A DNA stretch of 64,000 bases, from positions 32,054-96,053 of the forward strand of contig SHYT01000007.1 of NCBI GenBank assembly GCA_009692665.1, read 5' to 3'. The stretch is from Dehalococcoidia bacterium (GTDB taxonomy: Bacteria > Chloroflexota > Dehalococcoidia > Lucifugimonadales > SHYT01). The notes beneath the pieces were generated by a model that did not search any database, was not told where the DNA came from, and was given only the letters and a program-made list of their open reading frames with translations. Within the stretch, counting starts at the first letter, position 1. Every line of letters begins with the position of its first letter. The position numbers and the translations under genes were made by a program. This document shows, one piece after another, positions 7,111-43,421 of the stretch.

Positions 7111-8034
7111 TTAGGAGCCACGCAAGCTACTCAGGGTCTTTCTCAGCCCCTCTTCGAGTGGCACCCGAATGCGCCAGCCCAACCGTTGCCGCAGGCGTGT
7201 CCCATCTAACGAGAACTTGAAGACATCCCCTGGCCGTGCTGGTTCATGGCTGGGTTGCAGTGCGTACCCAGTGAGATGGGCCAGCGAGGAGAACAGCGTG
7301 TTTACAGACGTGCCGACTCCAGAACCCACGTTGTACACCTGGCTTTCTGCCTCCTCGCTTGCGAGCAAGAAAGCACGCGCCACGTCTTCCACATAGACAT
7401 AATCCTTCTCCTGGGCGCCCGTGCCGAAGATTGTGACCGGCTCACCGCGCAGCATACGGGCGCCAAAGATAGCAATGACGCCCGCCTCGCCGTTGGGGTC
7501 TTGACGGGGGCCGTAGACATTCGGCAACCGCAGCGCCGTGCCGCTCAGCCCAAACGAAGCCGAGAACGCTTGCAGCAGCGCCTCACCGGCCACCTTGCTT
7601 GCGCCGTACGGCGACCGTGGCCGGAGCGGCTGGTCTTCTGCGCAGGGCAGAGTGTCTGGCTCGCCGTAAACTGTGCCGCCGCTGGACGCGAATACCACCT
7701 TGCGCACGCCCGCACCCACGCACGCGCGCAGCAGGTTTGCCGTGCCGACTACATTAATCTCCGCGTCCTGCACCGGGTCGCGCAGCGACACCACGACACT
7801 TGATTGCGCGCCCAGGTGGAATACCACATCTGGGTGGAACGACTGCAACGCGTCCGCAACCTCGTCGCCCCGCAAGTCCACTTGAAATAAGGTTGCTTTG
7901 GGGTTCAGGTTCTGATGCCGCCCGGTGGACAGCACGTCCAGCACGGCCACTGAGTCGCCGCGTGCAACCAGCGCGTCCACCACATGCGACCCAATGAATC
8001 CTACGCCGCCAGTTACCAGTGCCCGCTGTATCAC
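7111..8034 (-). CDS. NAD-dependent epimerase/dehydratase (UDP-glucose 4-epimerase-like)
   Basis: GGVGFIGSHVVDAL Rossmann motif and YGASK catalytic motif. Confidence 0.85.
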   Translation of the reverse strand: MIQRALVTGGVGFIGSHVVDALVARGDSVAVLDVLSTGRHQNLNPKATLFQVDLRGDEVADALQSFHPDVVFHLGAQSSVVVSLRDPVQDAEINVVGTANLLRACVGAGVRKVVFASSGGTVYGEPDTLPCAEDQPLRPRSPYGASKVAGEALLQAFSASFGLSGTALRLPNVYGPRQDPNGEAGVIAIFGARMLRGEPVTIFGTGAQEKDYVYVEDVARAFLLASEEAESQVYNVGSGVGTSVNTLFSSLAHLTGYALQPSHEPARPGDVFKFSLDGTRLRQRLGWRIRVPLEEGLRKTLSSLRGS

Positions 8035-9230
8035 GCCTCAACTACCTTGTCCCGGTGCAGTTGCTCAATCTCCTGCTGGGTCAATCCACCCAGCGAGGCC
8101 AGAAGCTCGTCCGTATGCTGGCCCAGGTCCGGCGGAAGGATACGCACCTTGCCTGGGGTCCGTGACAGCTTGATAGGCACTCCCGTGAACTTCCAGGGCC
8201 CCAGCCGGGGATGCTCCATTTCCACAATCATTTCTCGGTGCTGTACCTGCGGATCGCTCATTACCTGTGGAATGTTCTGCAACGGCCCGCATGGGAGCTG
8301 CGCTGCCAGAAACTCGTCCAGCCACTCTTGCGTTGTGCGCGTCTTGAGCGCCTCAGCAATGACGGGCTCCAGATCCTTGTGGTGCACCGTGCGCTCCCAG
8401 GGCGTCAGGAACCGAGGGTCGTCAATGAGCTCCACGTGGCCGATAGACGCGCAGAACAGAGGCCAGTGGCCTGGATTGCTGCCGGCGATTGCCACCACGA
8501 TGCTGCCGTCCCTGGTTGGGAACACCTGAAAGGGCATGAGCACCGCGTGCCGCGTGCCAAGCGGCCCCGGCACCTCGCCGGTGGCCACGTGGCGGGCGAC
8601 AGCGTTCTCGACGAGGGCCACCTGGCAGTCCAGCATACTGACGTCTACCGCCTGGCCCTTGCCGCTCTTGGCGCGCTCCACCAGCGCGGCGCAAATGCCC
8701 AGCGCAGCCGTCATGCCTGCGTTGATGTCGCCGACGGGCGCGCCCACGCGCACGGGCTTGCCGCCGTCTTCCCCTGTGATGCTCATGATACCGCCCATTG
8801 CCTGCACCACAATGTCCAGCGCCGAACGCTCTTTGTATGGCCCCGTCTGGCCAAAGCCGGATACCGTGCAATAGATGAGACGGGGGTTGATCTTCGACAG
8901 ATCGTCATAACCAATCCCAAGCCGCTCCATTGTTCCAGGCGTGAAGTTTGATATCACGACATCAGCTTTCAGCACCAGTTTCAAGAACACCTCGCGGCCC
9001 CTGGGCTTTTGCAGGTCTAGGGCCAGGCTGCGCTTGTTGCGGTTGAGGCTCATGAAGTATGCGCTGTCCTCGCCGATGATGGGCGCCGTGCCGCGTGCCG
9101 CATCGCCATAGCCGGGGCGCTCCACTTTGATGACGTTTGCGCCCAGGTCTGCCAGCATCATGGTGCTGTAGGGACCTGACACAATCCACGTGAGGTCTAG
9201 AACCAGGATGCCGTCCAGGGGGCCGGGCAT
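8031..9230 (-). CDS. Family III CoA transferase (CaiB/BaiF)
   Basis: N-terminal LDGILVLDLTWIVSGPYSTMMLADLGANVIKVERPGYGD. 399 aa. Confidence 0.85.
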   Translation of the reverse strand: MPGPLDGILVLDLTWIVSGPYSTMMLADLGANVIKVERPGYGDAARGTAPIIGEDSAYFMSLNRNKRSLALDLQKPRGREVFLKLVLKADVVISNFTPGTMERLGIGYDDLSKINPRLIYCTVSGFGQTGPYKERSALDIVVQAMGGIMSITGEDGGKPVRVGAPVGDINAGMTAALGICAALVERAKSGKGQAVDVSMLDCQVALVENAVARHVATGEVPGPLGTRHAVLMPFQVFPTRDGSIVVAIAGSNPGHWPLFCASIGHVELIDDPRFLTPWERTVHHKDLEPVIAEALKTRTTQEWLDEFLAAQLPCGPLQNIPQVMSDPQVQHREMIVEMEHPRLGPWKFTGVPIKLSRTPGKVRILPPDLGQHTDELLASLGGLTQQEIEQLHRDKVVEA

Positions 9231-17546: not shown

Positions 17547-18590
17547 CTATCTGGCCGCCCGAGCGGCGGCTTCTTGTTCCGCCCGGTCAACTCGCTGTTG
17601 CGCAGCCTCGTCCAGCGTCTCCCCGATCGTGGTAAGCAAGCGGTCTAGTCCCCACCCCTGATGGGCCGAGACGGCCACGCTCCGAATGTCCTTCGTTTGG
17701 AAGCCTTCCAACTCCAAGGTATCTATAGTAGCGGCGTTTTCCTTTCCCATGAGCAGGTCTATCTTGTTGAGCACCAGCAGCCTGGGCTTGCGGGCTATGC
17801 GGAGGCTCTTGAGCGTGTTGTCGACCACCTGAGCCTGTTCAGCGGCATTACGATGGTTTATGTCAACCACATGCAGGAGAAGGTCAGCTTGCTCCAACTC
17901 CTCTAATGTTGCGCGGAAGGCAGCTACCACGATTTTTGGCAGTTTGTTGATAAAGCCTACCGTGTCGGACAGGAGGATAGAACGCTCATCCGGCAAGCGG
18001 AGACGGCGGGTTGTTGGATCCAGGGTAGAAAATAGCTTGTTTTCCACTTCCACTGATGAGCGCGTAAGTGCGTTAAAGAGGGTACTCTTGCCAGCGTTGG
18101 TGTAGCCAACCAGAGCTACGACGGGTACGCCTGCTTCTTTGCGGCGTTCCCGTTGCTGATTCCGCCGATCCCGGACCTGCTCAAGCTTTTCTTTCAAAAG
18201 GCTAATGCGCTTGCTGACGAGACGGCGGTCGGTTTCAAGCTGTGTTTCACCAGGGCCGCGTGTGCCAATGCCGCCGCCCAGTCGCTCCAAGTGCGTCCAC
18301 TGTCCAACGAGGCGTGGAAGTAGGTACTCGTGTTGGGCGAGTTCGACTTGGAGGCGGCCTTCCACGGTGTGGGCGTGCCTGGCGAAGATATCAAGGATGA
18401 GGGCGCTGCGGTCTACGACCTTCACGCCGAGGGCTTCTTCCAGGTTGCGCTGCTGGGTGGGAGTCAGCTCGTCGTCAAAAAGGGCGAGCGTATAGGCAAG
18501 GTCTTTGTGCTTTTCCTTTATCTCTTCTAGCTTGCCTTTACCGATGTAATGGTGCGTGAGGCGTTCCAACTGCTGCGGGAATTTGCCCAC
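17547..18590 (-). CDS. hflX: GTPase HflX. The track ORF starts at GTG 18590, but the conserved N-terminal domain continues upstream to about 18705.
   Basis: G-domain GYTNAGKSTLFNAL, DTVGFI, NKID. Upstream in-frame PERAILVGAGIKGQHPLWELEDSLQELAQLAGTAGADVV matches the HflX N-domain. Confidence 0.85.
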   Translation of the reverse strand: MGKFPQQLERLTHHYIGKGKLEEIKEKHKDLAYTLALFDDELTPTQQRNLEEALGVKVVDRSALILDIFARHAHTVEGRLQVELAQHEYLLPRLVGQWTHLERLGGGIGTRGPGETQLETDRRLVSKRISLLKEKLEQVRDRRNQQRERRKEAGVPVVALVGYTNAGKSTLFNALTRSSVEVENKLFSTLDPTTRRLRLPDERSILLSDTVGFINKLPKIVVAAFRATLEELEQADLLLHVVDINHRNAAEQAQVVDNTLKSLRIARKPRLLVLNKIDLLMGKENAATIDTLELEGFQTKDIRSVAVSAHQGWGLDRLLTTIGETLDEAAQQRVDRAEQEAAARAAR

Positions 18591-31969: not shown

Positions 31970-32827
31970 ATGAAAATCGGCGCGCATGTCTCTGCTGCGG
32001 GCGGCGTGGACAAGGCGATTGACCGCGCTCAGGAAATGGGCTGCGAGACTATTCAGCTCTCCGCGTCGTCACCCCGAAGCTGGGCGTTCAAGCCGCTCGC
32101 CGACACCGCAGTCCAAGCGTTCCGAGAGAAGTCTACCAAGACCGGCATCAAGCCCGCGTTCCTCCACGCCATCTACATGATCAACCTCGGCACCGGCGAC
32201 CCGGTGAACCTGGAGAAGTCAGTAGATTCGCTCACCAAAGCCATGCAGGCGGCGGGACAGATTGGCGCGCAGGGCGTCATCTTCCACGTCGGCAGCCACA
32301 AAGGCGCGGGGTATGACGGCGTGTTCAAGCAAGTCGTCGGCGCCATGGAAAAGGTGCTGAAGCAATCGCCCAAAGAGCCGTACCTGATGATTGAGAACAG
32401 TGCGGGCATGGGCCAGCACCTGGGCTCCAGCTTCGAGGAAGTCGGGCAGTTCATTAAAGCGCTGCAAACAAAGCAGGTGCGCGTCTGCTTGGATACACAG
32501 CACGCTTTCGCGGCTGGCTACGACCTGAGGAAGAAGGGTCCGTTAGCCGAGGCCATGGAAAAGTTCGACCAGCACATCGGCCTTGAGCGGTTGATCGCCG
32601 TTCACGCCAACGATTCCAAGCAGGAGCTCGGCTCCGGCGTGGACCGCCACGAGAACATCGGGGAGGGCAAGATTGGCACAGCAGGCTTTGAGACCATCAT
32701 GGCCAATCCCGCGTTTAAAGACGTCAACTTTCTTTTGGAAGTACCGGGATTTGAGAACATGGGGCCGGACAAAGAAAATGTGGACCGCCTGAAGGCCGCC
32801 CGCGCCAAGATCGGCGGCAAGCGGTAA
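31970..32827 (+). CDS. nfo: Endonuclease IV
   Basis: MKIGAHVS..GG N-terminus and a TIM-barrel Nfo-like sequence with HANDSK. Confidence 0.9.
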   Translation: MKIGAHVSAAGGVDKAIDRAQEMGCETIQLSASSPRSWAFKPLADTAVQAFREKSTKTGIKPAFLHAIYMINLGTGDPVNLEKSVDSLTKAMQAAGQIGAQGVIFHVGSHKGAGYDGVFKQVVGAMEKVLKQSPKEPYLMIENSAGMGQHLGSSFEEVGQFIKALQTKQVRVCLDTQHAFAAGYDLRKKGPLAEAMEKFDQHIGLERLIAVHANDSKQELGSGVDRHENIGEGKIGTAGFETIMANPAFKDVNFLLEVPGFENMGPDKENVDRLKAARAKIGGKR

Positions 32828-34830: not shown

Positions 34831-35020
34831 CTCTCACCTCACCCATTTGGTTGCGCGGCACGATGCCGTGCGGGGGACAGTATACTGGAAGAGAGCGATC
34901 CGTGGAACCGATGATTCGGACAGAGTGCTATGCTACCAATAAGCCAATTTAGTGTCCCTGACCTCTACAATCCAAGTGCAATCGCATCAGCGCTTTTTGT
35001 TTGGGGAGGCATAAAACAGA

Positions 35021-35221
35021 ATGGTTCGAATCGTATCCAATGAAACTCTCCGTAATCGAACCGGATACTTGGCCGATATCGACCTCGACTCGATTCAAGC
35101 CCAAAGTCGCTACTTCCCCCTGCTGGAGGCTCATTTCAAAGCCAGAGCCAGCGTTTCTAACGACCTGCCTGCTCAGCACTCAATACGGCCCAGGCGTGTC
35201 ATAGCCGCCCTCTACCGTTGA
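35021..35221 (+). CDS. small hypothetical ORF, possibly the frameshifted 5' part of the next gene
   Basis: ATG 11 nt after GGGGAGG (35003-35009). 66 aa. The next ORF's frame is already open from 35205. Confidence 0.3.
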   Translation: MVRIVSNETLRNRTGYLADIDLDSIQAQSRYFPLLEAHFKARASVSNDLPAQHSIRPRRVIAALYR

Positions 35222-35258
35222 TGTTCATTTCCCGCTGAGTCCATTAGCCATTGAGCGG

Positions 35259-35822
35259 TTGGATCAATTACTTCGAGGTTCGCATTTGAATATGACGATC
35301 ATTGCCGCTGGGATCGGCGAGTACCACGTTAACGGTCAGATGCTTCCTTTCCAATTCGAACCAGTCAGCGTATCAAAACGCATTTCAGTGACAGACTGGA
35401 TCACGAATGTGCTTGAGCCAATTGGGTGGAATAAATTTGTGAACCTGTCATTTTCGATTCCTACCGTAGAGTCCGCTGGGTTCTCTGACGCTCTGCGTCA
35501 ACTAGAGAATGTGAATAGTCGTTATCTCCAAGGGGACGACAGAGGAGTCCTTGCAGCGGCGTATGACGCAATAGATCCAGTAATGTTTTCTCAGAGACAA
35601 ACCCTCCTGCAGTGTGTGTCAAATCCAAGTAAACGCGCGGCAATAGACTCCCTAATTGAAACTGCCCATCGGTTCTTCAATGGAGGGAGACATGTGCCTG
35701 AAGAGCGCAGAACTCGAGGAGGGTTTGAAGTAGACCATATCGATGGCGAGTACGCACGTCTGCTTTCCGGTATTACTGGCGCATATTTAGCTAAACGCTT
35801 AGAGAGTGTGAGACCTGGATGA
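35259..35822 (+). CDS. hypothetical protein, translationally coupled to NurA
   Basis: 187 aa (TTG 35259, or ATG 35292). Low-GC coding DNA. Its stop overlaps the NurA ATG (ATGA at 35819-35822). No family recognised. Confidence 0.6.
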   Translation: MDQLLRGSHLNMTIIAAGIGEYHVNGQMLPFQFEPVSVSKRISVTDWITNVLEPIGWNKFVNLSFSIPTVESAGFSDALRQLENVNSRYLQGDDRGVLAAAYDAIDPVMFSQRQTLLQCVSNPSKRAAIDSLIETAHRFFNGGRHVPEERRTRGGFEVDHIDGEYARLLSGITGAYLAKRLESVRPG

Positions 35823-37039
35823 GTCTTGACCTATCCCGCACCATCGCGCAGGTCCGCGACCTCGCCACGCGCATGCGCGGCACCCGTGACGATCGCGCTT
35901 CCCGTCTGCGCCGCGCCGTTCAAGTCCTCTCCGGCTCCGAGCGCGAGGCGCTGAAAGACCGCGCCAAGCGAGCCGAGAACAAGACCTTCTTCCTCGCCGC
36001 GGAACCCCTTGGCGAGCCGGGTGAACGCCATGCCGCGCCCCACTTGCCGCCGGATTACACCGCGCTGTCCGTCGACGGTTCTCACATAGATGTGGAGCGC
36101 CACCTCGCCGCGCGCTGTTACGTTATCAACATCGGCGCGTGCATGCTCACCTATGGCCTGCACCCGGACGCCACGCTCGTAAACGAGCCCACACTTTATG
36201 CCACAGACGAGCAGCTTGCCATCCGAAACAACCAGGACGCTACGCAAGAGGAGCATATCCAGGGCGCTCTGCTCGGCATCAAGCGCACTGTGGAGGAGTT
36301 CAAAGCCCTTGCCGATTTCGCCAAGCTCGCGCCCGCTACACCCACCGTCGCCTTCGTGGACGGCTCGCTCATCCTGTGGGAGCTCGGTGGCTCGCCGAAC
36401 GGCCGCTTTCCTGATTATGTCCGCAGCGCGATGCTCCAGTACGGCATGCTCCCCGCGTTTGACGCACTCCGCAAGCTCTCCTCCTCGGCGCGCCCGCTGG
36501 CCCTCTGCGCCTACGTCAGCCTCCCCAACGGCAGCGAGGTCGCCAACACCACGCGACTCGCCCTCTGCACGTTCCCCGTTGCCGACTGCCGTCTGCACTG
36601 CAAAGCAATCAAGCCTGGCCAGCGCCAATGCGACGCCGTCCACAACCTCGTAGATCGTGACCTCATGGTCGAGATGCTCGTCCCCGGCGAGCGCTCTGCC
36701 ATATTCCGCACGCGCCTCGCCATGGTTCGCGAGTATGGCGACGACCACCAGGTCTGCTTCTTCTACCTCAACGTCGGCAACGAAATTGCCCGCATCGAAA
36801 TCCCCCAGTGGGTCGCCGACGACCGCGCCCTGCTCGACCTCGTGCACGCCGCCGCGCTCGACCAGGCCCGCCGTGGCGATGGCTACCCACCTGTCATCCA
36901 GGAAGCGCATGAGCAAGCCGTCATCAGCACAGAAGACCGCGCCCAGTTTCGCATGATGGTGGACGAAGCACTGGAGGGTGAACGCCTCCCAGCGTACACC
37001 TCTGAGAAACAACGCTCCAAACGCTTTCGCTGGGTTTAG
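35819..37039 (+). CDS. nurA: NurA-domain 5'-3' nuclease
   Basis: SVDGSHIDV and AFVDGSLILWEL aspartate motifs, and C-terminal GDGYPPVIQEAHEQAVIS. Confidence 0.8.
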   Translation: MSLDLSRTIAQVRDLATRMRGTRDDRASRLRRAVQVLSGSEREALKDRAKRAENKTFFLAAEPLGEPGERHAAPHLPPDYTALSVDGSHIDVERHLAARCYVINIGACMLTYGLHPDATLVNEPTLYATDEQLAIRNNQDATQEEHIQGALLGIKRTVEEFKALADFAKLAPATPTVAFVDGSLILWELGGSPNGRFPDYVRSAMLQYGMLPAFDALRKLSSSARPLALCAYVSLPNGSEVANTTRLALCTFPVADCRLHCKAIKPGQRQCDAVHNLVDRDLMVEMLVPGERSAIFRTRLAMVREYGDDHQVCFFYLNVGNEIARIEIPQWVADDRALLDLVHAAALDQARRGDGYPPVIQEAHEQAVISTEDRAQFRMMVDEALEGERLPAYTSEKQRSKRFRWV

Positions 37040-37348
37040 CTCGTACCCGCGGCAACTGGTGAACGCCGAGGCCATCACGTCTTGCGATGTGCCGGACGAG
37101 CAGGCGCCGCAGTAAAGTAGTTGGTGCAGGCCACGCCGTCCGCCGTTTTCGTTTGTTGTGACAACTTCCCGTTGGCGGTTGCCAGCAAGTACGATACACT
37201 TCCCCAGGGCGTCGCGATAGCTCTTCAATGTACTCGCGGTTTGGTAGGCCCCTGCGCCATCCCAGGAAATGTAAGAACAGCAGAACATTTTGCGGGAGGC
37301 GCAGGAGTCACCAAGATATACGCCTCATAGGCCGAGGGGGATTTGCGC

Positions 37349-38023
37349 ATGACCGGCAAAGTCGCTGAGGTAGTGGAATCGTCCTCCACCTTCTTCGTCG
37401 CCCAGTGCTACCGCCTCTATGACGCCCCCCCGCTCGGTGCCCTCGTGCGCGCCGGCGATCCCTCGGCTACGCTCGGGACAGGCTCTGATCTCATCTACGG
37501 CATCGTCTGCAACGTCGCCACCGGCCCGCTCGATACCGGCCGCCGCGTCCTCCCACGCGGCGAGGCTGAGGAAAGCGAAGAGGACCTCTACCGCGAAAAC
37601 CCCCAGCTTTCGCACGTCCTTGCCACTCGCTTCGAAGCCGCCATCGTCGCGCACTCCACTAAAGATGGCCGGGGCAAAGACGGCCTGCGCCAGGGCCTGC
37701 CGCCGCTCCCGCCGCACGTCCACGCCTTCGTCTTCCCGTGCGAGCCGTCAGAGCTCGCCCAGTTCGCCAAAGACTTCCGCTTTCTCCACCTCCTCCTCAC
37801 CGCCCCCAACCTTAGCGGCCCCGCCGCTGACGAAGTCATCTCCGCCTGCCTTCGCGCTTTGGTCGCCTCGAACAAAGCACAGAATCCTGTCCCGATCACT
37901 TCGGGAGGCAAGGCTCCCACAGACGAGCGAGCGCTCCTCCTCCAAGCCGGCCGCGCCCTCGCCCGTGAGCTCACCGACGACGCCCACCGTCTGAACACCC
38001 TCCTGCGCGGCCTGACGCAATGA
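37349..38023 (+). CDS. hypothetical protein with a HAS-barrel-like N-terminus, translationally coupled to HerA
   Basis: ATG 8 nt after GAGGGGG. N-terminal GKVAEVVESSSTFFVAQCY..PLGALVRAG..IYGIVCNV resembles a HerA-type barrel. ATGA overlap with the next gene (38020-38023). Confidence 0.6.
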   Translation: MTGKVAEVVESSSTFFVAQCYRLYDAPPLGALVRAGDPSATLGTGSDLIYGIVCNVATGPLDTGRRVLPRGEAEESEEDLYRENPQLSHVLATRFEAAIVAHSTKDGRGKDGLRQGLPPLPPHVHAFVFPCEPSELAQFAKDFRFLHLLLTAPNLSGPAADEVISACLRALVASNKAQNPVPITSGGKAPTDERALLLQAGRALARELTDDAHRLNTLLRGLTQ

Positions 38024-39663
38024 CCACCAACCACACCCCCAACAACGGCACCTACATGGGCATGGTCATCGGCGGCTCCCTTGAGGCTGGCGTCGAAGTC
38101 AAGCTCGCCCCCACTGCCTCCGTCGAAGACGTGAAGGTCGGCACCTTCATGACCCTCGCCGGCGAGCGCTCCCGCTTCATGGGCCTCGTCACCGACGTCC
38201 AGCTCCGCGCCACCGATCCCGCCTTCGCCGCCGTCACCCCTGACCCGGACGACACCCTCTCCGCGCAGGTCATGGCCGGCACCACCGCCTACGCCGTCGT
38301 CAAAGTGCGCCCCCAAATCGTCCTGCCCGAAATCGCGGGCGACGTGAAACCAGGAGAGGACGTTGAGCTCTCCCCCGCCAAGACCATCCCCGCGCACTTC
38401 TCCCGCGCCTTCACCGCCTCCGAGACCGACATCGGCATCGTGTTCGGCAAAGAGGACGCGCGCCACTTTTACGTCGGCAACCCGCTCGACCTGGAGGCCA
38501 AGGTCTGCCTGGACATGCAGCGGTTCGTGGAGCGCAGCAGCGGCGTCTTCGGCAAAAGCGGCACCGGCAAAAGCTTCCTCACCCGCCTTGTGCTCATCGG
38601 CATGGCGCAAAAGACCAGCGCCGTCAGCCTCGTCTTCGACATGCACAGCGAGTACGGCTGGTCCGGCCAGGACACCGACCGCTCCCGCCAGGTCAAGGGC
38701 CTCAAGCAGCTCTTCCCCTCACGCGTCGCTGTCTTCACACTGGACGAAGAGAGCACCCGCCGCAAAGGCATCACCCCGGACGGCGTCGTCCGCATCGGCT
38801 ACGACCAGGTGGAGCCGGAAGACATCCAGCTTCTCGCGGAGACCTTGAACCTCACGCCCAACGCTGTCCAGGCCGCCTACCGCCTACCGCGCTACAACGG
38901 CTGGGGCAAGCAGTGGCTGGAAAAGTTCCTTGAGGTCGAGCCGCCGCAGCTCCAGGACATTGCCATCCAGCTCAGCGAAAGCCCCATGACCATCGAAGCC
39001 CTCCACCGCCGCCTGGAACGTCTCAAACGCCTCCCGTTCATCGGCACCTTCCCGGACGAGCAGGCCATCCACGGCATCCTAGACTCCCTCAAGCGCGGCC
39101 GCCACGTCGTCCTCGAGTTCGGCCGCTACCGCAACTCGCTCGACGCCTACATCCTCGTCGCCAGCGTCCTCACCCGCCGCATCCACGACCACTGGACCCA
39201 GCAGGTCGAGCACGCCCAGGGCGACAGCGCCAAAGAGCCGCCCCCGCTCGTCATCGTCATTGAAGAGGCGCACAAGTTCCTCAGCCCGGACGTCGCCTCC
39301 CAGACCACCTTCGGCACCATCGCCCGCGAGCTGCGCAAGTACAAGGTCACCCTGCTTGTCATCGACCAGCGCCCCGGCTCCATCGACTCTGAGGTCATGA
39401 GCCAGATCGGCACCAAAATCGTCTGCCTGCTCGACAACGAAAAGGACATCGACGCCGCCCTCTCCGGCGTCGCCGGCGCCAGAGCGTTACGCGAAGTGCT
39501 GGCGCGCATGGAGTCTAAGCAGCAAGCCCTCTTCCTGGGCCACGCGTTGCCGATGCCCGTCGTCGTCCGCATCCGTGAATACGGAAGTGAAGACTCCTAC
39601 CGCCAACTCCTCCAGCCGACTACGGCGCGGCGTAAAGACGGCGGCGACGAGCTATTTGGGTGA
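38020..39663 (+). CDS. herA: HerA-like (DUF87) hexameric ATPase/helicase
   Basis: N-terminal barrel, Walker A GKSGTGKSFL, Walker B LVIVIEEAHKF, C-terminal LLVIDQRPGSID. Confidence 0.85.
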   Translation: MTTNHTPNNGTYMGMVIGGSLEAGVEVKLAPTASVEDVKVGTFMTLAGERSRFMGLVTDVQLRATDPAFAAVTPDPDDTLSAQVMAGTTAYAVVKVRPQIVLPEIAGDVKPGEDVELSPAKTIPAHFSRAFTASETDIGIVFGKEDARHFYVGNPLDLEAKVCLDMQRFVERSSGVFGKSGTGKSFLTRLVLIGMAQKTSAVSLVFDMHSEYGWSGQDTDRSRQVKGLKQLFPSRVAVFTLDEESTRRKGITPDGVVRIGYDQVEPEDIQLLAETLNLTPNAVQAAYRLPRYNGWGKQWLEKFLEVEPPQLQDIAIQLSESPMTIEALHRRLERLKRLPFIGTFPDEQAIHGILDSLKRGRHVVLEFGRYRNSLDAYILVASVLTRRIHDHWTQQVEHAQGDSAKEPPPLVIVIEEAHKFLSPDVASQTTFGTIARELRKYKVTLLVIDQRPGSIDSEVMSQIGTKIVCLLDNEKDIDAALSGVAGARALREVLARMESKQQALFLGHALPMPVVVRIREYGSEDSYRQLLQPTTARRKDGGDELFG

Positions 39664-39964
39664 CCGGCCTCGTTCAACAGGCCACGCATTTTGTCATTCT
39701 GAGCAAAGCCGCAGCGTTGTCGAAGAATCCGTGCCCAGACCCACGAGGTGACCACAGTTGTTACCCGTTCGTGGTGAGCTTGTCTAATCCATGATCGGAA
39801 ACTATGCCGTCTCTACCAGCCGTAGACTTTTAGGACAAGGCACGGGCCGGAACTGCGCGGGAGCATGTACTCGATGGAATCCCGCATGCTCTTACAGAGC
39901 GCCGATCCGGATGGAAACGTGCTGCTTCCTACGGCGAGAGGTGGCAGGATAACCCTCATCCTCG

Positions 39965-39984
39965 CCTTCTCCCGCAGGAGAAGG
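39965..39984. repeat. Short hairpin repeat CCTTCTCC-CGCA-GGAGAAGG(GATT)
   Basis: Related to the 46215-46243 hairpin. Both have TCTCC/GGAGA arms and end in GGGATT. Confidence 0.6.
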
Positions 39985-40028
39985 GATTGGTGGTGAGCTC
40001 GAGGAATGCGTATTCTCAGAGCAATGAC

Positions 40029-42719
40029 CTAGCCGGCTGGGTCTACGTCTACGCTCCAGGCAGCAGAGATGCCAACACGAGTGAGGAACGGGGTGATCTC
40101 GCTGCCAAGCGGAAGGGGAAACCGCAGCAGCAGTTGCCAGCGGTAGTATCCGCGGATGCGCGATGGGTACGCGGGCCCAGGGCCGACGACCTCCACCTCA
40201 CCGAAGCCTTCCCGGAGCAGCGTGTCCGTGATGCGCCTGCCCATGTTTTCGACTTCTTCCTGGCACTTTGCCTCGTTCACGTGCTGGTACAGCAGCCTTA
40301 CCAGGCGGCTGTACGGCGGATTGGCGTGCTCACGGCGATAGCCGATTTCCTGCTGGTAGAAGCCGGCGTAGTCCTGGCGGGCGGCTGCCTGGATGGCGTA
40401 ATGCTCCGGGGAGTAGGTCTGGATGACCACGCGTCCCGGCAACTCTGCGCGGCCTGCGCGCCCGGCGACCTGGCAGAGCACCTGGAACAGCCGCTCACCT
40501 GAGCGCAAGTCGGGCGAATGCAGCCCGACGTCCGCGAGCACCACGCCGACCACCGTCACGCGCGGCAGGTGCAGGCCCTTGGCGACCATCTGCGTTCCCA
40601 CCAGCACCTGTGCCTCGCCATTGCTGAACCGCTGCATGATGTCCTGGTGCGCCCTGCGGTCCCGCGCGGTGTCCTGGTCCCAGCGCAGCACAGGCGCACC
40701 AAAGGCAGCCTTCACCTCATCTGCGACGCGTTGCGTGCCAATGCCCAGGTAGCGAATGTGGACGCCCTTGCACTCAGGACACTGCGACGGCGGTTTCGTC
40801 TTTGCCCCACAGAGATGGCAGAGGAGCCTGTCCGATGCGCTGTGGTAGGTCATGGCGAGGTCGCACCGCCTGCACCGTACGATGTACCCGCAATCGCGGC
40901 ACTGCACCACGCCGGCGGAACCGCGGCGATTGAGGAAAAGGATGACTTGCTCACCGCGCTGGAGCGCGCTGCCGAGCGCCGTATGGAGGCTGCGGCTGAA
41001 GATGCTGCGGTTGCCGTCTTTCAACTCCTGCCGCATGTCCACCACCTGCACTTGCGACAGCGGCAGCGACGCGGGCCTCCCTTCCGGCCCGGTGGTGAGG
41101 CGCTCAGAGAGTTGCAGGAGCGTGTGCTCGCCGGCAAGCGCGTCGTGGTACGTGCCGACGTCCGGCGTGGCGCTGCCCATGAACACCACGGCGCCCGTCA
41201 ACTCCGATAGCTTGCGAGCGACGTCTCGTGCGTGGTACCTGGGTGAGGGGTCTTCCTGTTTGTAAGTCCACTCATGTTCCTCGTCAATGACGATGAGGGC
41301 CACATCGGGCTGTGGCGTGAACAGTGCGCTACGGGAGCCGAGCACCACGTCGAACTCACCGTTGCGAATGCGCCACCAGGTATCGAACTGCTCGCCAGCG
41401 GAGAGACCGCTGTGGAACAGGGCAATACGGCCTGGGAATCGGCTGCTGAGGCGCTGGACGGCCTGCGGCGTGAGCGCGATTTCCGGCACCAGGTACATGC
41501 CGCGTTTGCCGGCCGCCACGCACTGGGCGAGCGCTTGCAGGTAGACTTCCGTCTTGCCGCTGCCGGTGACGCCTTCCAGTACAAAGCTGCGCTGCGTTCC
41601 CTGTCCCGCCAGAGCCGCAAGCACCTGCTCCAGCGCGCCCGACTGCGCCGCCGTCAGGAGCAACGGAGACTCGATTTGGAAGCCGCTCCCAGCAAGCGGG
41701 TCGCGAATGAGCCGCTCACGTTCGATGTGGGCGATGGCGCGCTTGAGCAGTACGTTAACGGCTGCGGCCCCGTATTCCTTGCGGGCCTGGCTGGCGGGTA
41801 TATCCCCTTCCACTAAGAGTCGCTTTAGAAGCGCAACCAGCGTCGGTCTATCGCCCACGCCAAATTGCTGCACTAAAGGGATAACCTGAGCGGGTTTGAT
41901 CTTGAGCACAACTTGGTTGCCTTCAACCCCGATAGCTCCCAGTTTTCTAAGAGCCGTGACAGCACTCGCTCCATAGGTTTTGCGGGCCTGACTTGCAATC
42001 AGTGACCCATTGGTAACTAACGTTTGCAGTAACGCCACATGCCTTGGTTTCCTCTCGGTTCCCATCTCATAACCAAACTCAGCAACGCCTGTTGCCTTGG
42101 TAGAAAGGACTAGCACCTCTTCAAAACGTTGGCTCACCCTTGGCTTAGGCCAGGAATCCTCTCGCTCCACAAGGCCTTCTCGGAGCAGGTGCTGTAGCGC
42201 AGGGCGGGCACCGCGTTCTATTCTCAGCCTGATCGCGTCGTCGTCCAGCGGGCCAGACTGCAACAGCGCTACGACCTGCTGTTCCACGGTGGTTAGTTGC
42301 TCTGCCGACGTTGCGCGTTTTTTGGCCGTTAGTTTGAAGAGCGCTTGCGTGTGGAGCGGGAATCCAGGTGGCATGAGCAACGCTGCCGCTTGGAGGAGCG
42401 AACAGAAGTAATGCTCGCTCATCCATTGCGCCAGGTGGCGCTGCGCTTCAGTCAGCAGAGGGACGGCATCGACGACGGCCTCCACGTCGCGGGGGGTGAC
42501 GTCAGGTGCGCGGTGGTGGAGCTTGAAGATGACGCCTTGCACACGGCGCCGCCCCAGAGGGACGATAACGGTCTGGCCGTCGTAGAGCGTGAGCGAGGAG
42601 GGTACGGAGTAGGTCAGTGTGCGGCCGGGAGCAAGCGGGGCATCGACCGCCACCTCAGCAAAAAGAACGCCCGGAAGGGCGTTCTTTGGTGGTTGCTGGT
42701 GCGTGAGGGGCAAAGCCAC
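40029..42719 (-). CDS. priA: Primosomal protein N' (PriA) with extra winged-helix-like modules
   Basis: GVTGSGKTEVY, VIDEEHEW, Cys-rich zinc region CRDCGYIVRCRRCD..CHLCG..CPEC. 896 aa. Confidence 0.9.
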   Translation of the reverse strand: MALPLTHQQPPKNALPGVLFAEVAVDAPLAPGRTLTYSVPSSLTLYDGQTVIVPLGRRRVQGVIFKLHHRAPDVTPRDVEAVVDAVPLLTEAQRHLAQWMSEHYFCSLLQAAALLMPPGFPLHTQALFKLTAKKRATSAEQLTTVEQQVVALLQSGPLDDDAIRLRIERGARPALQHLLREGLVEREDSWPKPRVSQRFEEVLVLSTKATGVAEFGYEMGTERKPRHVALLQTLVTNGSLIASQARKTYGASAVTALRKLGAIGVEGNQVVLKIKPAQVIPLVQQFGVGDRPTLVALLKRLLVEGDIPASQARKEYGAAAVNVLLKRAIAHIERERLIRDPLAGSGFQIESPLLLTAAQSGALEQVLAALAGQGTQRSFVLEGVTGSGKTEVYLQALAQCVAAGKRGMYLVPEIALTPQAVQRLSSRFPGRIALFHSGLSAGEQFDTWWRIRNGEFDVVLGSRSALFTPQPDVALIVIDEEHEWTYKQEDPSPRYHARDVARKLSELTGAVVFMGSATPDVGTYHDALAGEHTLLQLSERLTTGPEGRPASLPLSQVQVVDMRQELKDGNRSIFSRSLHTALGSALQRGEQVILFLNRRGSAGVVQCRDCGYIVRCRRCDLAMTYHSASDRLLCHLCGAKTKPPSQCPECKGVHIRYLGIGTQRVADEVKAAFGAPVLRWDQDTARDRRAHQDIMQRFSNGEAQVLVGTQMVAKGLHLPRVTVVGVVLADVGLHSPDLRSGERLFQVLCQVAGRAGRAELPGRVVIQTYSPEHYAIQAAARQDYAGFYQQEIGYRREHANPPYSRLVRLLYQHVNEAKCQEEVENMGRRITDTLLREGFGEVEVVGPGPAYPSRIRGYYRWQLLLRFPLPLGSEITPFLTRVGISAAWSVDVDPAG

Positions 42720-43348: not shown

Positions 43349-43421
43349 GCGCCCGTAGCTCAGCGGATAGAGCACGTGGCTTCGGACCACGGGGTCGGGG
43401 GTTCAAATCCCTCCGGGCGCA
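43349..43421 (+). tRNA. tRNA-Arg (anticodon TCG)
   Basis: Manual cloverleaf: GCGCCCG/CGGGCGC acceptor, GCTC..GAGC D arm, CGTGG-CTTCGGA-CCACG anticodon arm, GGGGG-TTCAAAT-CCCTC T arm. Confidence 0.9.

Follow-up and report, generated by a model that had tools for sequence, protein, structure and literature searches.

A putative HAS-barrel partner of HerA is encoded between nurA and herA in a chromosomal locus of Dehalococcoidia

We analysed a 64,000-nucleotide (nt) stretch of DNA (hereafter the window) from a Dehalococcoidia bacterium (NCBI GenBank assembly GCA_009692665.1, contig SHYT01000007.1, positions 32,054 to 96,053 of the forward strand), focusing on a locus that encodes a NurA-family nuclease, a HerA-family ATPase and, between them, a small protein that we call X (Table 1). 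A first-pass annotation had described five co-oriented genes here, with a dedicated and translationally coupled partner of no assignable family for each of the two enzymes. Five plus-strand open reading frames (ORFs) are indeed found in the ORF list of the window, and both of the ATGA start/stop overlaps that had been taken as signs of coupling can be read in the sequence, one at 35819-35822 between a 187-amino-acid (aa) ORF and NurA, the other at 38020-38023 between X and HerA. The two ORFs upstream of NurA were found to be pieces of a single gene, however, and the locus is a four-gene stretch rather than a five-gene one: one decayed foreign gene, of a family that we call Y, followed by a NurA-X-HerA module.

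Table 1. Features of the NurA-X-HerA locus, with positions counted from the first nucleotide of the window.
Feature	Position	Strand	Basis
N-terminal fragment of disrupted gene (family Y), 66-aa ORF	35021..35221	+	tblastn with family Y relatives, GC content at third codon positions (GC3)
C-terminal fragment of the same family Y gene	35214..35822	+	homology from 35214, in the next frame; ORF as read 35259-35822
NurA-family nuclease, 406 aa	35819..37039	+	Pfam NurA 8.2e-23
NurA-X spacer, 309 bp	37040..37348	.	no recognisable feature
X, predicted stand-alone HAS-barrel protein, 224 aa	37349..38023	+	AlphaFold2 model, Foldseek, gene linkage
HerA-family hexameric ATPase/translocase, 547 aa	38020..39663	+	Pfam DUF87 9.6e-27

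The two enzymes have the features expected of a HerA-NurA module. The nurA and herA genes are co-oriented neighbours in one operon, the match of the 406-aa ORF covers the full Pfam NurA model (positions 3-254 of 254), and the 547-aa ORF adds to its DUF87/HerA match a weak match to the HAS barrel (6.5e-3, residues 13-95), giving HerA the combination of a HAS (HerA-ATP synthase) barrel and a RecA-like ATPase with Walker A and B motifs and an arginine finger. The motifs quoted in the first-pass annotation are present in both proteins and are conserved across the clade alignments. The NurA catalytic residues D86-G-S-H89, D181-G182 and E362/H364/E365, which comprise the Asp, Glu and His residues of the nuclease, are 100% conserved in 55 clade sequences, and in 67 clade sequences conservation reaches at least 99% for the HerA Walker A motif (G178-K-S-G-T-G-K184), Walker B residues (E415/E416) and D449-Q-R-P motif. 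Given this invariance of the catalytic motifs within the clade, NurA and HerA are presumably both active. By sequence, HerA is distant from all solved HerA structures in the PDB (best match 8wiv, 2e-18); the HerA of Deinococcus radiodurans (drHerA) was not retrieved at an E-value of 1e-3, and no NurA chain was retrieved from the PDB with NurA at an E-value of 0.01.

X is 100% identical to a deposited protein (P0001, "MAG: Dehalococcoidia bacterium EXR67_04810"; MAG, metagenome-assembled genome), with which the ATG start at 37349 agrees; a TTG at 37343 is also possible. More than 120 close homologues were found, all named ones from Chloroflexota, and an exhaustive profile search returned 1068 clusters at 50% identity with E-values of 1e-3 or below (752 at 1e-10 or below). 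Among the best 150 of the 1068 representatives, almost all are free-standing proteins of 120-275 aa, typically around 190-220 aa, and no fusion of X to HerA or of NurA to X was seen except in P0209 (372 aa), which has the C-terminal part of NurA ahead of X and is probably a read-through or frameshift product. X appears to be under constraint at the sequence level; an alignment of 61 family members contains ten invariant columns and many nearly invariant ones, and the most conserved loop is acidic (R70-G71-E-x-E-E-S-E-E). The divergent, longer members P0255 and P0237 (315 aa) carry acidic N-terminal extensions and low-complexity inserts.

The AlphaFold2 model of X has a predicted local distance difference test score (pLDDT) of 92.1 and a predicted template modelling score (pTM) of 0.88, and consists of a beta-barrel (approximately residues 5-130) followed by a helical domain (approximately residues 133-223). 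The structure search that the first-pass annotation had proposed for this protein was carried out with Foldseek on the model and led to HerA. HerA chains take up the first 34 places among the PDB matches (E-values from 4e-6 to 4e-3, approximately 140 aligned columns), including those of Sulfolobus (4d2i), Thermococcus (9x1l/9x1m) and Deinococcus (7wrw/7wrx/7f6d) as well as those of the DUF4297-HerA and Sir2-HerA complexes (8sub, 8wld, 8ziq, 9c1m), and the next matches are alpha and beta subunits of F1-ATPase. This order of matches is consistent with the pattern expected of a HAS barrel. The helical domain specific to X had no informative match in the same search of the PDB. No P-loop and no ATPase domain was found in X, whose family members measure 185-224 aa. 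The first-pass view that X can be assigned to no family stands at the level of sequence models and falls at the level of the fold: X scores 14.8 bits against the Pfam HAS-barrel model (PF09378), below the gathering threshold of 25.2, the same model is matched below threshold in 12 of the 61 family members (best E-value 1e-4), and no match was found in NCBIfam, PADLOC or PHROG, yet the predicted fold can be assigned to the HAS barrel. A search of PDB sequences with the X profile gave nothing meaningful, the sole match being a nematode lipid-binding protein at an E-value of 1.

To place X in its genomic context, we examined 74 loci from GTDB species representatives, all of them Dehalococcoidia or Chloroflexota MAGs. 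Leaving aside two loci that break off at a contig edge, 72 could be evaluated, and in 71 of these herA is the next gene downstream of X; at the exception (L080), the nearest HerA-like match is 3.4 kb downstream. The stop codon of X overlaps the start codon of HerA in 66 of the 72 (by 4 nt, as ATGA or GTGA, in 59, by 1 nt in six and by 8 nt in one), and this overlap is retained across 38-62% identity. The X-HerA arrangement is also kept in the most distant members examined (L085 and L086, 35-37% identity), where NurA overlaps X by 10 nt. Of 73 loci evaluable for NurA, 61 have it ahead of X in the same orientation, and in the relatives the two genes may overlap by 10 nt or be separated by as much as several hundred nt. 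In the 12 remaining evaluable loci (L013, L014, L016, L018, L027, L029, L030, L035, L052, L055, L069 and L082), X and HerA occur without NurA within 6 kb upstream. X-HerA is the invariant unit, because its adjacency persists while the spacing and presence of NurA vary, and NurA is the usual third member. We consider it very likely that X is a functional partner of HerA with a HAS-barrel fold.

Several of the NurA-less loci encode a conserved protein of approximately 346 aa upstream instead (MAITIDEMLDLLSF...HGPMA...). A substitute nuclease was considered for these loci and rejected; judged by eye, the upstream genes have no relation to NurA and encode the approximately 346-aa protein, which does not look like a nuclease, and radical-SAM-like and methyltransferase-like proteins. 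Upstream of NurA, selB (selenocysteine elongation factor) is found in 41-44 of 53 related loci, often only 1-8 nt away, and the string selB-nurA-X-herA is seen in most relatives (e.g., L021 2882-4747 and L086 2732-4594). The window has no selB at this position, which is occupied by the Y remnant; only a weak GTPase match was seen elsewhere in the window (17592-18122, minus strand).

The remnant itself accounts for the two ORFs that had been read as separate genes upstream of NurA. Residues 21-67 of a 304-aa relative (P0122) align to window positions 35075-35215 (tblastn, 47% identity, E-value 5e-10), as do residues 8-67 of another relative (P0125) to 35039-35215, and residues 97-300 of P0122 align to 35214-35807 in the next frame (E-value 6e-51). 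Because these abutting segments lie in different frames, a single gene of about 300 aa must have been split into the 66-aa and 187-aa ORFs. P0122 residues 68-96 have no counterpart in the window, corresponding to a deletion of approximately 29 codons together with a frameshift. The 187-aa length assumes a TTG start, and an ATG start would give 176 aa (P0121). The break is not an artefact of one assembler, since run SRR8561391, assembled independently in Logan, gives a contig (L084) that matches the window at 100% identity over 1729 bp across the junction. GC3 is 0.57 in the 66-aa fragment and 0.44 in the C-terminal fragment, compared with 0.68-0.89 in every neighbour (NurA 0.79, X 0.79, HerA 0.89).

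Family Y is very small. About seven members (5-7 clusters) were found among 5.8 billion proteins, those with a name all being from Chloroflexota and the intact ones having 290-306 aa, and a second, profile-based search found no further members. In L001 the gene (8001-8915) follows RuvB at the contig end, in L003/L004 (7634-8564) it lies beside HicAB and insertion sequence elements and is frameshifted there too, and in L005 (2212-3132) it lies between two peptidase genes; the context thus differs in every genome, and the gene is frameshifted in two of four contexts. Family Y looks like a mobile accessory gene. The model of an intact relative (pLDDT 78) has an N-terminal beta-sandwich and a helical bundle, and the family shares the motif NGGRHxPE...GGFEVDHIDxEY. 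The structure search that had been suggested for the 187-aa protein, was run with this full-length relative: the model matches only generic immunoglobulin (Ig)/LEA-like beta-sandwiches (TMEM106B, Af_0446 and Kir cytoplasmic domains), the helical domain had no match, and no match to family Y was found in Pfam, PHROG or PADLOC.

These results divide the proposal that each enzyme has a dedicated partner. It holds for HerA, with which X is linked in the survey of related loci, and it fails for NurA, as family Y lies beside NurA in none of the 74 related NurA-X-HerA loci. Homology to family Y stops at 35807 and the frame continues for four codons into the NurA start; because the homology ends four codons short, the ATGA overlap of the 187-aa ORF with NurA looks incidental. 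From their sequence and composition, the Y ORFs appear to be the remnants of an unrelated, horizontally acquired and since decayed gene upstream of NurA, and not a NurA partner. An ATGA overlap alone is thus no proof of partnership, as one of the two here joins a decayed foreign gene.

The first-pass annotation had also raised the possibility of a defence machine. The window carries secDF, an AP-endonuclease-2 family gene, a Leu/Phe-type dehydrogenase gene, priA and rplS around the module, and in the relatives either the same synteny (SecDF/nfo) or an upstream selB is found. In a Mantel test on 39 loci, the three proteins NurA, X and HerA follow SelB in their pairwise identities (r = 0.96; none of 999 permutations reached this value), and HerA diverges as slowly as SelB (mean identity 63% versus 61%). 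No match to X was found in 72,556 plasmids and 50,697 phage records, or in viral structure predictions (BFVD). The patchy, island-like or mobile distribution of anti-phage systems is therefore not seen here, given the conserved synteny, the correlation with SelB and the lack of plasmid and phage matches. A PADLOC run on the locus recognised HerA only generically and matched neither NurA nor X, and no Sir2 or DUF4297 effector domain was found in the ORFs of the locus with Pfam or PADLOC. HerA scored 78 bits against the anti-phage NCBIfam model NF042943 (cut-off 800) and 61 bits against NF042944 (cut-off 850), compared with 68 bits for repair-type HerA models, and is thus equally far below the cut-offs of both kinds. 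Because of these flanks, the co-divergence with selB, the absence of X from plasmids and phages and the PADLOC and NCBIfam results, our analysis points to a chromosomal, vertically inherited housekeeping DNA-end-processing system of Dehalococcoidia rather than a mobile defence island.

Among known systems, the locus shares with the NurA-HerA pair of D. radiodurans (DR_0836/DR_0837; PDB 7wrw, 7wrx, 7f6d; PMC9960219) adjacent and co-oriented nurA and herA genes on a bacterial chromosome in a non-mobile context, a HerA composed of a HAS barrel and a RecA-like ATPase, and a NurA whose acidic and histidine catalytic motifs are conserved. Unlike the two-component HerA6:NurA2 complex of D. radiodurans, the module has a third gene between nurA and herA that is translationally coupled to herA in almost all clade members, and its HerA and NurA are very divergent in sequence from the Deinococcus and other solved proteins. 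The archaeal systems (Sulfolobus 4d2i; Thermococcus 9x1l/9x1m) have the same enzyme pair, and archaeal HerA chains are among the best structural matches of X, but the mre11-rad50-herA-nurA operon differs in that no mre11 or rad50 was seen at our locus (29-45 kb of the window), which has an extra HAS-barrel gene and a bacterial host. The Sir2-HerA and DUF4297-HerA systems (8sub, 8wld, 8ziq, 9c1m) also combine a HerA hexamer with a partner encoded by a neighbouring gene, and their HerA chains are matched by X. The partner here is a predicted copy of a HerA domain rather than an effector enzyme, and the housekeeping context, vertical inheritance and absence of X from plasmids and phages further set the module apart from them. 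In its predicted fold, residues 5-130 of X (approximately) resemble the HAS barrel and the crown of F1/V1-ATPase alpha and beta subunits. The known HAS barrels encountered in this analysis are joined to the N-terminus of a P-loop ATPase, whereas X stands alone, has a helical domain of its own and does not reach the gathering score of Pfam. A literature search, which did not include the founding comparative genomics of FtsK-HerA (Iyer et al. 2004), found no description of a third NurA-HerA subunit, a stand-alone HAS-barrel partner or a locus of this kind in Chloroflexota.

The reading that we favour, and regard as reasonably probable, is that NurA, X and HerA form a three-component end-resection machine in which X is an accessory subunit bound to HerA, with Y as a decayed foreign gene. 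NurA and HerA would act, by homology, as in the described HerA-NurA resection complexes. X would be a free-standing paralogue of the HerA HAS barrel that has a helical domain appended at its C-terminus and lacks an ATPase, and would be translated with HerA from one message through the conserved 4-nt start/stop overlap. From the paralogous fold and the coupled translation, X appears to be a HerA-bound subunit that is made in near-stoichiometric amounts. In described complexes, the N-terminal HAS-barrel layer of the HerA hexamer is where a NurA dimer binds (PMC9960219; PMC11472057), and in D. radiodurans the contact is an ionic one, in which basic motifs of NurA meet the acidic residues D78/E80/D81 of HerA (PMC9960219). 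The barrel of X may join, stack on or cap the HerA crown. Because the crown face is both the NurA dock and the DNA path, X placed there would control NurA docking or DNA entry, setting the timing or mode of NurA recruitment. A specific crown-binding or gating mechanism of this kind is tentative, with the odds somewhat against it. The most detailed version, in which HAS barrels of X sit on the HerA crown, either as a separate ring or as six caps at its periphery, and provide the platform that docks and gates the NurA dimer, perhaps by way of the invariant acidic loop, is a rather speculative one that we offer as a possibility; the acidic loop is suggestive when set beside the acidic NurA-binding patch of drHerA.

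Several points weigh against this reading. An hhalign comparison aligned X residues 29-171 with residues 40-167 of the clade HerA in register, which agrees with the predicted fold, but with an E-value of 0.02 and a probability of 2% this similarity is marginal; homology of X to the HerA barrel rests on predicted structure. The docking geometry of X is our inference. Two proteins suffice for the D. radiodurans and archaeal complexes to function in vitro, so the core chemistry does not require X. The clade HerA retains a HAS barrel of its own, so X does not simply supply a missing domain, and the 12 NurA-less loci mean that the role of X may not concern NurA. The scan of related loci used peptide patterns from a 12-sequence alignment and is biased towards close relatives, such that neither restriction to Chloroflexota nor prevalence in the class can be derived from it.

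Rivals to a HerA-bound accessory subunit were weighed on the same evidence. X could instead be a decoy or inhibitor, a free HAS barrel that mimics or blocks the NurA-docking face of HerA and keeps the complex off until DNA is damaged. It has the predicted fold of the docking domain, its highly conserved acidic loop is reminiscent of the NurA-binding patch in D. radiodurans HerA, and its gene is flanked by those of the two enzymes and, in certain lineages, overlaps NurA. Its coupling to HerA is nevertheless closer and better conserved than that to NurA, X-HerA pairs occur without an adjacent NurA, and any equivalence of the loop and the patch is putative; we regard a decoy as unlikely. The exclusive coupling to HerA and its persistence in NurA-less loci would sit well with an assembly or loading factor that caps barrel-barrel interfaces and controls the formation of the HerA hexamer or its opening on DNA, with no direct role in NurA docking. 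HAS- and F1-type N-terminal barrels are the crown that holds such hexamers together, in F1-ATPases as in HerA, which also speaks for this option, as does the discussion of how a closed, stable drHerA hexamer is threaded onto DNA ends (PMC9960219). Coupled synthesis at near 1:1, however, fits a stable subunit better than a catalytic chaperone, and the helical domain of X has no informative structural match; an assembly factor seems to us a decidedly unlikely explanation.

The machine of four or five genes proposed in the first-pass annotation, with a dedicated stoichiometric partner for each enzyme and a possible role in anti-phage defence, is partly borne out in that both ATGA overlaps exist and the HerA partner X is real, although the count of five genes does not stand. 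In favour of defence, HerA partially matches the anti-phage HerA models of PADLOC and NCBIfam, and systems of HerA with an effector are well documented (PMC11472057, PMC11291478). Against it, the supposed partner of NurA is a disrupted gene whose composition is foreign and which is absent from all 74 related loci, the anti-phage model score is far below its cut-off and no better than that of repair-type models, and NurA and X have no match in the defence library. Combined with the housekeeping context, the co-divergence with selB and the absence of X from plasmids and phages, this makes the proposed machine very improbable. Last, X might be a mere syntenic neighbour of unrelated function, its overlap with HerA reflecting only compact operon structure. 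The functionally unrelated selB is also tightly spaced before NurA, and because of this, tight spacing alone is weak evidence in these genomes. A structural paralogue of a HerA domain would not be expected in a random neighbour, however, the X-HerA adjacency survives the loss of NurA and selB from the neighbourhood, and the overlap is kept in the great majority of loci across a wide range of identities. We give this explanation scarcely any credence.

HerA-NurA has hitherto been treated as a two-protein resection machine in which the barrel crown of HerA is the docking surface for NurA. The Sir2 and DUF4297 defence effectors dock on the same surface of the HerA crown. What is new here is a conserved and co-translated protein in Dehalococcoidia that, by its predicted fold, is a free-standing copy of this docking domain, which suggests that HerA machines have a layer of control or architecture that had not been recognised. 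If X does form a ring or caps that serve as a platform for NurA, it would represent a new class of subunit for HerA-family translocases, in which a domain of the ATPase has been duplicated and freed as a regulatory subunit. Approximately one thousand clusters of "hypothetical protein" can be labelled as HerA-associated HAS-barrel proteins.

The spacer between NurA and X is unusually long and of lower GC content in the window, whereas the two genes are closer or overlap in many relatives. It contains a Shine-Dalgarno-like run (GAGGGGGA) ahead of the ATG at 37349. Searches of the spacer against related loci with blastn and tblastx found no similarity, no Rfam match was found in it, and promoter and terminator scans were at chance level; for the locus as a whole, the only non-coding feature reported by Rfam is a distant tRNA. 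A tRNA gene lies at 43349-43421 (plus strand).

Other DNA-metabolism genes are found close to the module. The AP-endonuclease-2 family gene (31970-32827, plus strand) is 3 kb upstream, and priA, encoding the replication restart helicase (40029-42719, minus strand), converges on herA; this proximity may be coincidental. An antisense ORF of 485 aa (35831-37288, minus strand) spans the entire NurA gene and is, in our view, a side effect of the high GC content (64%). Over NurA-X-HerA (window positions 36001-40000), the GC content is 0.64 and the GC skew -0.16, compared with a GC content of 0.56-0.60 and a skew near 0 in the flanks, and the coding strand of NurA, X and HerA is markedly C-rich.

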